A DNA stretch of 64,000 nucleotides from a virus (lineage: Duplodnaviria > Heunggongvirae > Uroviricota > Caudoviricetes). Position 1 is the first letter of the stretch. Each line of letters opens with the position of its first letter. Both the position numbers and the translations under genes were made by a program. Positions 10,132 to 13,988 of this stretch are shown piece after piece. Location of the stretch: IMG/VR virus record IMGVR_UViG_3300036760_000193, positions 91,395 to 155,394 of that record; one strand, written 5' to 3'. The notes beneath the pieces were generated by a model, which saw only the letters and a list, made by a program, of their open reading frames with translations, had not been told where the DNA came from and made no database searches.

Positions 10132-11633
10132 TACCAACTCCCATCATCAAAAATCAAATCATCAACAGAGTTTACATCTTGCATTTTATAACGAGATTCA
10201 GTTTTATATATTTTTTCACGATCATTTGCATGAGACTCTAAAAACTTACAATTTTGATCGAAGATGTCTACTATATATGCTTTGACTTTATTATACGGTT
10301 TACGCAAAACACGACCGATTAATTGAAACGCATCTACTGATGATGCTGCGGCTTTTGCGTTTATCAAAACATCTAAATTTGGAACGTCGATGCCTTCACC
10401 AAAAATTGTTGTGCAAATAACGATCTTTCTTTTTCTCTCATCAAGTTCTTTCAAAACATCTTGACGCAATTGTGATTCAGATTCTCCGAAAACAAAAATT
10501 GCAGTCGGATCAAATTGCTGAAGCATCGCTTCTAAAATCTTCCCGTGTTCAACTTTCGTAACTGCGATCAAAACAGTTTTCCCTGCGGAAATCGCCTTCA
10601 AAGCCGCCTGTGCGATGACTTTATTTCGCTCTGTATTGTGAACTACTTCAATGTCATAAATATCTGGGTATCTCATTTTGTCTCTACCCTTTCTTGGATG
10701 CTTAAACAAAAACATTTGGACTAAAGGAGGTACAAGGTATCCAGCATCAATCAATTTGGATGCTGATATATCAACAATGATTTTACCTTGCCATGCTTCA
10801 ATCAATAAGTCAGCATTATCTTCTCTCCACGGGCTTGCGGACATGCCAATTTTATAAAACGCATTTTCTGCTTTTTTATGAATCATGGAAAACGAATCCG
10901 AGGGCACATGATGACACTCATCTGTAATTAAGCAGTTAACGCTCTTCACGTAATCCTGTACTTTCTGCTTTTCTGCCACGGTCTCTGGTGCATCTGGAAG
11001 GAATATGGTTTTGGCATTTCCATTCTCGTCTTTTTCTTCCCGTTCACGACCAAAATTGTAACAGGCTGCAATAGACTGAACCATCCCCACTGTAATAGGT
11101 TGAATGTCTTTGACTTCATCCCCGATACGACCAATGTGAATTCCCAAAGCTGCTTCCAAGCGAGAAATGATCTGGTAGAACACATCTGTCTTATGAATAA
11201 GTATGAGTGTAGGCACGTTTAACTTGGCTACAACCCCGATAAACACGTTTGTCTTACCGCCGCCTGTCCCTATCTTTACAATGCCTCTTTGCTTCTTAAT
11301 CGCTTCATTAATCGCTTCATTCTGGTAGTCTCGAAATACAATTCCTTTGACCTTCATTTCAGAACCAATCTGAACTTGCGGCCTATTATCTCTCAAATGA
11401 CAGGAAATGCCAGCCTTCTTAAGGGCGTCCACCACATAATGAATCAGCCCCGTTGGAAATGATTGACTATAGGGGCTGAACAACTTCACAGTACCAGCAA
11501 AACGATTATATTTTCTAGCATAGAAGGCTCCTGGTATTTCATAAGACGTTGCCATGTCAATGCTCTTAAGAATCTCGTCTGGAACCTCTCCTATAATCTT
11601 TGACCTAACATTGTTGATCTCAATTTCTATCAT
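10131..11633 (-). CDS. SF2 DNA helicase (UvsW/ResIII-like)
   Basis: FRDYQ, GTGGGKT, ITDECHH, GMSASP, FGEGIDVP, QLIGRVLR; start moved to the ATG at 11633 (ATGA overlap). Confidence 0.92.
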   Translation of the reverse strand: MIEIEINNVRSKIIGEVPDEILKSIDMATSYEIPGAFYARKYNRFAGTVKLFSPYSQSFPTGLIHYVVDALKKAGISCHLRDNRPQVQIGSEMKVKGIVFRDYQNEAINEAIKKQRGIVKIGTGGGKTNVFIGVVAKLNVPTLILIHKTDVFYQIISRLEAALGIHIGRIGDEVKDIQPITVGMVQSIAACYNFGREREEKDENGNAKTIFLPDAPETVAEKQKVQDYVKSVNCLITDECHHVPSDSFSMIHKKAENAFYKIGMSASPWREDNADLLIEAWQGKIIVDISASKLIDAGYLVPPLVQMFLFKHPRKGRDKMRYPDIYDIEVVHNTERNKVIAQAALKAISAGKTVLIAVTKVEHGKILEAMLQQFDPTAIFVFGESESQLRQDVLKELDERKRKIVICTTIFGEGIDVPNLDVLINAKAAASSVDAFQLIGRVLRKPYNKVKAYIVDIFDQNCKFLESHANDREKIYKTESRYKMQDVNSVDDLIFDDGSW

Positions 11634-12391
11634 GATACTACTTTTTGATCGTCCCAATATCGTTCAAGAAGCTGCATTTGCAAATCATTGATTTTGTCCA
11701 AATCAGGCCCATATGGTAGTTGACTTTTTACATACGCCTCTTCTATCAAAGATTCAAACTGGTCAGCCTTGGATAGAACTTCTTCAATCTTGAACTTGCC
11801 AATTTTTATATCTCGAACGAGCCTATTATGAGTGATAGGAAACGACAAACGGCCATCAACCAAAAGTTCAAGACCTTCGGTCAACAGCCGTATCAAATGG
11901 CTTGCGAATTTTACATCGTAGCCGAATTTCTCGTAATACTCAACCCGTCCGCCTTCTGCTTGTTTGAAAAGCAGTTTTTGCTTTTGGGAATGAGCATAAC
12001 CAAGAAATCTATGTTTTACTTTTTTGCTTATAAAAAGGGGAGCCGCCATTAAAAGTTCTGCGCCGTATGGATCACAATTAATGATGTGCTTTTTGTCTGC
12101 AAATAGAATTTCAACGATATTGGGGTTATTCTCAGCGCATAGTTTGATGAATTTAGGAAGAGAATATAAAGTGCAGTCAGTATCGCTCTTGTCATTGCGA
12201 TGCCCTGAGTCAGAAGGATTGGTTCTGATCTCAACTTGTTCACACGTCTTCAACCCCATGACATACTCTTTGTCAGGGATGAATACCCCGACGTAATCTT
12301 TGTCGGAGTTTTCCGTTTCGGTTCCGTATAGATGTGAACCAACCATAACCTTTAGGATAAGGTTACGTTCAGCCATTTCTCTTTCTTTCAT
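11630..12391 (-). CDS. DNA polymerase beta-family nucleotidyltransferase
   Basis: VGSHLYG....SDKDYVGV motif, NPNIVEIL, YDVKFASHLIRLL; start at ATG 12391 (ATGA overlap with map). Confidence 0.88.
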   Translation of the reverse strand: MKEREMAERNLILKVMVGSHLYGTETENSDKDYVGVFIPDKEYVMGLKTCEQVEIRTNPSDSGHRNDKSDTDCTLYSLPKFIKLCAENNPNIVEILFADKKHIINCDPYGAELLMAAPLFISKKVKHRFLGYAHSQKQKLLFKQAEGGRVEYYEKFGYDVKFASHLIRLLTEGLELLVDGRLSFPITHNRLVRDIKIGKFKIEEVLSKADQFESLIEEAYVKSQLPYGPDLDKINDLQMQLLERYWDDQKVVS

Positions 12392-13176
12392 AGCTCGTCG
12401 TCCTCTAAGTCTGGGTGTACAATTTCTTCGTCTCGTAATGTTAAAATCGTTGGGCCATCGTCTTCTATGGCGATCATGTGTTCCCAATGGCAAGCAGGTT
12501 TTCCATCTGCTGTCACTATCTTCCATTCATTAGGTTCCACGATCTTCCCGTCAGGGTTCCATGTCAAAATCGGTTCAATACAAATCACCATGCCAGACAC
12601 TAACTCTGCGCCAGGGTCTTTCACCTCGACATTTGGGATGGAAGGCTTCTCATGGATGTTTCTACCAATCCCATGACCAACATAGCGTTCGACGGCTCCA
12701 TATCCTTGCTTTTTAATGTATTTGGCAATGGCATTGGAAATGTCAGCCACATGATTTCCAGGATAGGCTTTCTCAATACCTTCCAATAGGGCGAGATACC
12801 CGTGGAGCACAAAAGCTTCCACATCGGGGTTGACCTTTCCTATTATATAGGTCTTGGCTGTATCACCACAAAAGCCGTCTAAACTGGCTCCTAAATCTAG
12901 GGTGACAATATCGCCGTCTTTCAAAATGTAATTGGAAGGGGTACAGTGTATCACTTCTTCGTTGACACAAGCACAAAGAGTGTTTGGGAAGTTTCGATAG
13001 CCTTTGAACACAGGGATGCCGCCATTGGCGCGAATAAATTCTTCCGCTTTGGCGTCAAGTTCAAGGGTGGATATTCCAGGACGGATTATCCCTCCCAACA
13101 TATTATGAGTCTCAGCACAGAGTTTGCCTACAGCTTTCATCTTGGCAAGCTCTTCGCCTGTCTTTATCGTAATAAT
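12388..13176 (-). CDS. map: type I methionine aminopeptidase, probable ATT start
   Basis: Metal ligands all present (DLG, GDTA, GHGIG, IEP, WEH). The frame extends 12 codons above ATG 13140 to ATT at 13176, giving (M)ITIKTGEELAKM, with GGAGAGG 7 nt upstream. Confidence 0.93.
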   Translation of the reverse strand: MITIKTGEELAKMKAVGKLCAETHNMLGGIIRPGISTLELDAKAEEFIRANGGIPVFKGYRNFPNTLCACVNEEVIHCTPSNYILKDGDIVTLDLGASLDGFCGDTAKTYIIGKVNPDVEAFVLHGYLALLEGIEKAYPGNHVADISNAIAKYIKKQGYGAVERYVGHGIGRNIHEKPSIPNVEVKDPGAELVSGMVICIEPILTWNPDGKIVEPNEWKIVTADGKPACHWEHMIAIEDDGPTILTLRDEEIVHPDLEDDEL

Positions 13177-13209
13177 GGCCTTACCTCTCCGTAATCGTTT
13201 TTCGTGAAT

Positions 13210-13551
13210 TTACAGCGTTTTTAATGATTTTAGCAAATCCGTAACTGTTTCTACATTTCTAATGGTATTCTTAAGTTTATGAAAATCTGTTATTGCATCC
13301 ACATCTTCTACAAATTGTTGGCTCTCATTTGGTTCTTTGTAAAATTGAGCCGATCCAGGTTTCACTGGGTTCAAATAAAATTGTTTGTGTCCATCTGGAG
13401 CAGTTCTGAAATTTCCGTACTCGTCAAGAACGGCGATCACTTCATATCGTGCCCCACAAATAGTACAGTACGCCCATTGCCAATCTGGGGTCACTTTACC
13501 ACAATCTCTCAAGGAGTTTTGACAGGTTATACAAGGCATAGAATCAATCAT
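13210..13551 (-). CDS. zinc-ribbon protein (CxxC...CxxC)
   Basis: MIDSMPCITC...YCTIC; ATG at 13551 has a GGAG SD and an ATGA overlap with the upstream gene. Confidence 0.65.
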   Translation of the reverse strand: MIDSMPCITCQNSLRDCGKVTPDWQWAYCTICGARYEVIAVLDEYGNFRTAPDGHKQFYLNPVKPGSAQFYKEPNESQQFVEDVDAITDFHKLKNTIRNVETVTDLLKSLKTL

Positions 13552-13988
13552 TTGTTTCTCCTTCTCTTCGTATTCATTATACGTACTTTCTTTTTGTTTG
13601 TAAAGAGTTCTTTGAAAAACACCTTGGGAATACGCTTTTGTAACACCGCCCGAACAACCTTCTCCACCTTGCAACAAACCAACTCTTCTTTGTATTGTTG
13701 ATGCTTGTGCCCCTTGCTGTTGTTATAAATTCGCCACTTATTCCGTAGGGTTTGGTCTCTTTTTATAACTTTCTGCTTGGCGTTGTCAATTTGGTATTGA
13801 GTAAACAGGTCAAATACAAAATGTGTCACTTCATGATAAATGGTCATACATTGCTCAAATGGCGGATCGTCTAGATTTACGTCGATCCTGCAAGACTTTC
13901 GTCCATCTATTGCACTGTAGTATCCACTGTCTTCATCTTCTTTAGGTCCATTGAATCTACGAAAATACAGGTTGAGTTTGACTTTCAT
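13548..13988 (-). CDS. HExxH zincin-like protein (possible metallopeptidase)
   Basis: TIYHEVTHF preceded by beta-strand IDVNL, later EELVC (possible third ligand); very basic C-terminus. Confidence 0.55.
   Translation of the reverse strand: MKVKLNLYFRRFNGPKEDEDSGYYSAIDGRKSCRIDVNLDDPPFEQCMTIYHEVTHFVFDLFTQYQIDNAKQKVIKRDQTLRNKWRIYNNSKGHKHQQYKEELVCCKVEKVVRAVLQKRIPKVFFKELFTNKKKVRIMNTKRRRNK

Follow-up and report, generated by a model that had tools for sequence, protein, structure and literature searches.

A conserved AUU codon as the probable translation start of a phage methionine aminopeptidase gene

Where does translation of a gene begin when the sole canonical start codon in its frame would cost the product a conserved N-terminus? 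The question is raised by map, the methionine aminopeptidase (MAP) gene on the minus strand of a 64,000-nucleotide (nt) stretch of Caudoviricetes DNA, hereafter the window. The window is G000:C1:91395-155394 of a 193,203-bp virus with direct terminal repeats (IMGVR_UViG_3300036760_000193), and coordinates given below without this prefix are positions in the window. Gene callers place the start of map at an ATG (13140-13138). The initial annotation, made from the letters of the window, had proposed that translation starts instead at an ATT led by a Shine-Dalgarno (SD) sequence, and the comparative, structural and assembly evidence presented here strongly supports this proposal. On the basis of sequence comparison and a structural model, map translation very probably starts at the AUU codon at 13176-13174, and ATG 13140 would encode an internal methionine in helix 1 of the enzyme.

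Direct reading of the minus strand showed that the map frame is bounded by an in-frame TAA (13212-13210) and a TGA (12390-12388). From the TAA the frame runs through 11 sense codons to ATT (13176-13174), then through a second ATT (13173-13171) and ACG ATA AAG, and reaches the ATG at 13140-13138, which is codon 13 when counted from the first ATT and is most likely an internal Met. No in-frame ATG, GTG or TTG was found between the TAA at 13212-13210 and ATG 13140, as had been claimed from the start. The SD sequence GGAGAGG occupies 13184..13190 and is separated from the proposed initiation codon (13174..13176) by the 7-nt spacer TAAGGCC. When every element of this arrangement, described earlier as GGAGAGG, 7 nt and an ATT 12 codons above the called ATG, was read again, all were found to be correct. 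The claim that ATG 13140 lacks an SD sequence was also borne out, as there is no GGAG, GAGG or AGGA 4-17 nt upstream of it. Read from ATT 13176 to the TGA at 12390-12388, the full coding sequence (12388..13176, minus strand) has 262 codons for a type I MAP, and the protein is (M)ITIKTGEELAKMKAVG. Codons 2-12 (ITIKTGEELAK, 13141..13173), which form the N-terminal strand and open helix 1, are missing from the database gene call.

After a homologue search, DNA was fetched for ten distinct relatives; L003-L005 were identical to L002 over the inspected region and were counted once. All ten share a block in which amidase_2, small open reading frames (ORFs), map, an RlaP nucleotidyltransferase gene and a helicase gene follow one another, and amino-acid identity among the eleven MAP sequences, window included, ranges from 53 to 87%. 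The initial annotation had suggested aligning map from related phages. In that alignment the non-standard start was kept in 10/10 relatives, with ATT in nine (L002, L006, L007, L139, L141, L142, L143, L144 and L145), ATA in L140 and ATG in none. With the window included, ATT occupies this position in 10 of the 11 sequences and ATA in one, and a GAGG-type core lies 6-8 nt ahead of the ATT or ATA in all 11. A canonical start was absent from -15 to +3 codons around the ATT position in eight of the ten clade sequences tallied, the window standing outside this tally. The two exceptions are L144, where the GTG chosen by the caller belongs to the SD sequence itself (GAGGTG) and is out of frame in the near twin L143 through a 1-nt indel, and L142, where the GTG is Val4 and lies 17 nt from the SD sequence. 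At the codon aligned with the called ATG 13140, both L140 and L145 carry TTA (Leu), so that a start at this ATG cannot be the conserved solution; because the internal Met is replaced by Leu, the gene callers fell back on TTG codons further in for these two sequences. The second ATT (13173-13171) was considered as a start and rejected, as four relatives have ATC there and three have CCA or ACA. Judged from these alignments, this clade of phage map genes has inherited and kept a non-standard start, AUU and in one case AUA.

The boundary of the coding sequence was examined in the eight sequences whose N-terminus is free of codon insertions. Over codons 2-12, amino-acid identity was 0.71, 44% of the differing codons were synonymous, and conservation at the three codon positions was 0.86, 0.93 and 0.74. 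Over the 11 in-frame triplets upstream of ATT, the corresponding values were an amino-acid identity of 0.11, 2% synonymous and a position conservation of 0.55, 0.61 and 0.59. Purifying selection acts on codons 2-12, and the coding signature begins exactly at ATT. In all sequences an in-frame stop lies 5-17 codons above ATT, and the region also holds non-triplet indels. Identity at four-fold degenerate third positions was mostly 0.2-0.4 between lineages, which means that these positions are saturated and that the lineages are old.

The protein read from ATT fits the known MAP fold. It falls under MEROPS M24A and matches Pfam Peptidase_M24 (PF00557) at residues 12-238 (E 1.2e-45; score 156 bits, cut-off 23), and 47 solved MAP chains match it at E < 1e-30. 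The best solved relative is the Enterococcus faecalis MAP 3tb5, whose residues 2-254 align with residues 2-254 of the phage protein (E 2.8e-56). Because residue 2 pairs with residue 2 in this alignment, ATT occupies the position of Met1. The positions matching the five metal ligands (D94, D105, H168, E201 and E232) and the catalytic histidines (H77 and H175) are invariant columns of the homologue alignment (A1). The metal ligands of the Escherichia coli enzyme (D97, D108, H171, E204 and E235) are numbered three higher, an offset derived from the match of phage residue 2 to residue 3 of 1mat. An AlphaFold2 model based on a 31-sequence alignment had a mean predicted local distance difference test score (pLDDT) of 95.6, residues 1-10 averaged 95, and helix 1 comprised residues 7-30. 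Met13 would thus lie inside this helix, and a protein started at Met13 would lose a quarter of helix 1 along with the N-terminal strand. Together with the alignment to solved MAPs, the model upheld the earlier view that the called ATG removes the conserved N-terminus of the enzyme. The start M-(I/A)-x-(I/L)-K of the type Ia form, which has no N-terminal extension, is present only if ATT is the start codon, and the same N-terminus was found in the surveyed bacterial MAPs. The nearest bacterial proteins, labelled Bacillota or Clostridia, are 45-50% identical to the phage MAP. From sequence and model, the predicted product is a complete and catalytically intact 262-residue type I MAP.

Other explanations of this locus have to be weighed against a start at AUU. 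The window comes from a single metagenome-assembled virus record and non-canonical starts are rare, so that the ATT might stem from faulty sequencing or assembly, or from a mutation that recently inactivated an ATG, in a gene that is mis-assembled or decaying. The initial annotation had kept an error in view. This is now practically excluded, because ATT or ATA stands in ten distinct relatives from independent samples and assemblers, and because a second, independent Logan contig assembled from run X1, a sediment metagenome that is the probable source, is identical over 12300-13700 at a depth of 17.6; this conclusion comes from the comparison of contigs. A 258-nt soil-metagenome contig from another study (X2, about 96% identical) covers 12958-13215 with 11 differences; none was reported at the ATT, the nearest being at 13178, and the SD sequence is too near the contig end to be judged. 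Strong purifying selection on the gene and the invariance of all metal-ligand positions also speak against decay. The more specific suggestion that AAG at 13182-13180 is a mutated ATG was rejected, as that codon is not conserved and relatives have AGT, TGT, AGA and others there. It is very unlikely, if slightly less so, that translation starts at the called ATG 13140, which would give a naturally shortened MAP of 250 residues behind an untranslated leader of 36 nt. This ATG is the sole canonical start in frame, and gene callers settled on it, or on the corresponding codon, in most relatives. However, it has no SD sequence ahead of it and is replaced by Leu TTA in L140 and L145, the 11 codons before it show the evolutionary pattern of coding sequence, and it lies inside helix 1, the residues that would be missing being modelled at a pLDDT of about 95 and aligning residue for residue with solved MAPs.

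The gene upstream of map brings in two further alternatives. Its ORF (13210..13677, minus strand), for which a Pfam search gave no match, ends at the TAA (13212-13210) 33 nt before ATT, and this stop bounds any N-terminal extension of MAP. In the relatives, 10-30 nt separate the upstream stop from the start, and the frame of the stop varies. Production of the MAP N-terminus by read-through or frameshifting out of this ORF, as a fusion and with no initiation at AUU, would be favoured by the stop being in frame with map in the window, L002, L007 and L142. We consider it to have next to no chance of being correct, because the stop is in another frame in L006, L139, L141 and L143, no coding signature is seen in the triplets between stop and ATT, and an indel of non-triplet length distinguishes L143 from L144 in this stretch. 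A different role for the upstream gene would be termination followed by reinitiation or 70S scanning, by which the AUU would mainly be reached, MAP output would be slaved to the upstream gene and the weakness of the codon would matter less. The short distance of 10-33 nt from stop to start, seen in the window and every relative, and the tight packing of the block with ATGA overlaps are in line with this route, and in E. coli reporters about half of second-cistron initiation at short gaps arose in this way, including at an infC-like UAA-GGU-AUU junction (PMC3592434). As the main route it nevertheless appears unlikely. The strong SD sequence at optimal spacing in every member points to a contribution of de novo SD-led initiation, and reinitiation becomes less frequent as the distance grows (PMC3592434), which in the window is 33 nt; the two routes can coexist.

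A start at AUU is favoured over these alternatives by a combination of observations, namely the lack of a canonical start, a positioned SD sequence, the coding boundary and the fit to the fold. The initiator tRNA would read the AUU, guided by the strong SD sequence 7 nt upstream in an unstructured leader. A search for conserved RNA structure around the start in the 11 sequences found none (RNAalifold -0.74 kcal/mol, no covariation; single-sequence z-score 0.36). A scan for promoters and terminators gave nothing above shuffled expectation, and the gap between the upstream ORF and map is too short for a terminator and contains no convincing promoter. Ordinary SD-led initiation, with initiator tRNA reading the AUU, is the most economical explanation, and ribosomes terminating 10-33 nt upstream may contribute to it.

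To set the phage genes against a background, MAP loci were collected from a JGI/ENA metagenome scan with the clade alignment; they are mostly bacterial MAPs at <=50% identity. Among the matches listed there were 78 distinct bacterial or metagenomic loci, 76 of them usable, and all 76 had a canonical start at or near position 1 (ATG in 51, GTG in 11 and TTG in 3 at position 1, and a canonical codon within a few codons in 11). Against this background, and with its recurrence in ten distinct relatives, the arrangement at phage map goes well beyond chance. In a maximum-likelihood tree, all ATT/ATA sequences fell within one 28-row phage clade with a Shimodaira-Hasegawa-like approximate likelihood ratio test (SH-aLRT) value of 100. 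This clade contains the 11 verified ATT/ATA sequences, 10 calls with a short N-terminus and 7 calls whose N-terminus is full, one of them beginning with Leu. Of the short calls, nine were picked out by an automatic rule and the tenth is P0014, whose start lies about 40 residues into the protein; all ten are known as protein calls. Thus 21 of the 28 members either have a verified ATT/ATA start or are stored without the full N-terminus. The sister group comprises 51 bacterial rows, in which the N-terminus is full in all but P0045, which the automatic rule flagged for beginning differently.

Most of the closest proteins are stored as calls of 238-253 residues that start at the internal Met or later. 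Calls cut at the N-terminus by 12 to about 40 residues were noted for P0002-P0009, P0012-P0014, P0017, P0020, P0022, P0023, P0030, P0032, P0033 and P0070. The systematic truncation of public phage MAP calls arises because gene callers do not consider ATT or ATA. Further searches gave little: megablast of the locus against GenBank phages returned no match, and the best tblastn match against the same set was 39% identical, many of the records found resembling bacterial contamination. An IMG/VR scan with the single protein returned none, and with the clade alignment it returned relatives at <=43% identity only. A second, distant viral MAP clade, 36-41% identical, also has odd starts. In L043 (IMGVR_UViG_3300037184_000121, 1501-1503) position 1 is ATC, a TGA precedes it by three codons, and the 25 codons that follow include no canonical start; the start position is ACG/ATC in L015, and L025, L027 and L014 use TTG.

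What might an AUU start do for this gene? The formylmethionyl initiator tRNA reads AUU at several-fold lower efficiency than AUG, and initiation factor 3 (IF3) discriminates against AUU. In an E. coli reporter, AUU gave 6-8 times less product than AUG or GUG (PMC3592434), and non-canonical starts are barred by IF3 (PMC9723500). An ATT start attenuates ebpA expression in E. faecalis (PMC4447247), and a GTC start puts Streptomyces sigR under the control of IF3 (PMC5472188). Because of the weakness of AUU and the discrimination by IF3 described in this literature, low and IF3-sensitive MAP output would be expected. It can be safely inferred that MAP output would be held low and would rise when IF3 discrimination relaxes, and the phage probably keeps MAP synthesis low or dependent on start-codon fidelity. 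Of the uses that the AUU may have, we lean, at about even odds, towards a plain expression throttle, and a fidelity- or time-dependent switch is a more tentative possibility. The initial annotation had suggested, on the precedent of infC, that the phage may link MAP production to host initiation fidelity. A plain low-expression setting, as for ebpA (PMC4447247), explains the data equally well and is at least as likely as such a link through IF3.

The genes downstream of map may share in such an effect. The RlaP-family nucleotidyltransferase gene (11630..12391, minus strand; Pfam RlaP, E 4.6e-24) begins with an ATG (12391-12389) that shares ATGA with the map stop, and it in turn abuts the helicase gene (11630-11633). 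The 4-nt overlap between map and the RlaP gene recurs in L002, L006, L007 and L144. Given this overlap and abutment, any limit on map translation could propagate downstream. It is conceivable, if rather doubtful, that map forms part of a phage-timed translational switch, in which MAP and the products of the coupled RlaP and helicase genes would be made efficiently only once start discrimination relaxes in the infected cell. Such relaxation could come about if abundant phage mRNA titrated the host IF3, or through the bS21 homologue and initiator tRNA of the phage (described below). If this were true, production of a Met-trimming enzyme would be tied to the state of the initiation machinery. MAP is not known to act on IF3 or on start-codon discrimination, and no IF3 (PF00707) or IF1 gene was found in the phage, which together argue that this is not an autoregulatory loop of the infC type.

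One relative differs in the genes around map. In L141, a 54.6-kb JGI contig, ORFs with an Endonuclease_7 domain flank map on both sides (652-1002 and 2225-2641). No other relative has these ORFs, which resemble mobile nuclease genes that have been inserted. The ATT start is the same whether or not they are present.

Several points weigh against the interpretation given above. The AUU start rests on sequence comparison and a model, and the host is uncultured. ATT makes up 49% of the Ile codons in these genes, and one of 13 control columns with a conserved Ile is likewise ATT in 10 of 11 sequences, so that the conservation of ATT over ATC or ATA is not statistically decisive alone. The 11 sequences fall into about five deep lineages and are thus not 11 independent observations. 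The backbone of the phage clade did not resolve and DNA was read for 11 of its 28 members, so the tree does not decide whether AUU is ancestral to the whole clade. Finally, the interpretation as a throttle or as an IF3 sensor draws on E. coli and Gram-positive precedents only.

The phage carries further genes related to translation. It encodes 34 tRNAs, one of them of the initiator type. This tRNA-Met(CAU), at G000:C1:11112-11187 on the minus strand (L150 313-388) and outside the window, has the C1xA72 mismatch and A11:U24. The third anticodon-stem pair of initiator tRNAs is near-universally G31-C39. In the phage tRNA the stem pairs are G29-C41, G30-C40 and C31-G39, so that, of the three hallmark G-C pairs, the third is inverted. 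Next to this tRNA, at 10936-11010, lies an elongator tRNA-Met. A bS21 homologue (33.4 bits against a cut-off of 27) is encoded in the terminal repeat (G000:C1:16-138 and 193083-193202), and right beside the bS21 gene lies a peptide deformylase (PDF) gene (G000:C1:192485-192922, 150 bits). Together, map, PDF, bS21 and the 34 tRNAs are a phage gene set for translation initiation and N-terminal maturation.

In a heuristic scan of 238 phage ORFs, map was the only clear SD-plus-ATT start. With this single clear case, map is singled out and a genome-wide habit of ATT starts is not indicated. Two weaker candidates were noted, both on the minus strand and with an AGGA-type motif upstream: at G000:C1:42604-43252, an ATT lies 20 codons above a first canonical start that has no SD sequence, and at G000:C1:163911-164346, an ATA lies 5 codons above one that likewise has none.

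In E. coli, infC has a conserved AUU behind an SD sequence, and the preceding gene stops a short distance upstream. The phage gene resembles it in having an AUU and an SD sequence shortly after an upstream stop and in having a product that belongs to the machinery of initiation and N-terminal maturation; the AUU of infC is repressed by IF3 (PMC3592434, PMC9723500). The infC product, in contrast, itself discriminates against AUU and closes a feedback loop, whereas MAP implies no autoregulation and its gene is phage-borne. In this bacterium, AUU starts have been confirmed for infC and pcnB only (bioRxiv 10.1101/063800). The pcnB gene of E. coli and the ebpA gene of E. faecalis share with phage map a rare ATT upstream of a mis-annotated ATG, which in those genes lowers the output of a protein needed in small amounts (PMC4447247). 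They differ in being cellular genes, whereas the phage codon is kept across a deep clade and heads a translationally coupled run of replication and repair genes. The GTC start of Streptomyces sigR (PMC5472188) is another non-canonical start and serves as a regulatory handle through IF3. It is a different codon in a different organism, and its mechanism was proved experimentally, whereas phage map is known by its codon alone.

The enzyme itself shares fold and length with bacterial type I MAPs (E. faecalis 3tb5, E. coli 1mat/2mat), and the matching metal-ligand positions are invariant. It differs from them in being phage-encoded and in starting at AUU instead of AUG, GUG or UUG. Like the PDF of cyanophages (PMC3660681), it is a phage copy of a co-translational N-terminal processing enzyme, and this phage also has a PDF; the two activities differ in that PDF removes the formyl group and MAP the methionine. 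Within the searchable literature, we came across no description of a phage MAP or of its start codon. Initiation at AUU is of a known kind, to which phage map adds a comparative series of unusual depth, along with an annotation error that is systematic. This error has a practical side: deposited phage MAP sequences that are without at least the first 12 residues, and with them a strand and half of helix 1, would lead structural or biochemical work to use a crippled protein.

Conserved AUU starts are very rare, and a deep, naturally replicated series of them in a phage enzyme of N-terminal maturation is a new system for asking what rare start codons serve. MAP activity is something on which phages depend. 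According to the account of Labrie et al. (2019) given in PMC8829019, mutation of the host MetAP gives broad phage resistance in Streptococcus thermophilus. With its own MAP, PDF, bS21, initiator tRNA and 33 other tRNAs, this phage would be partly independent of host MAP function, which makes the dosing of MAP a real question.

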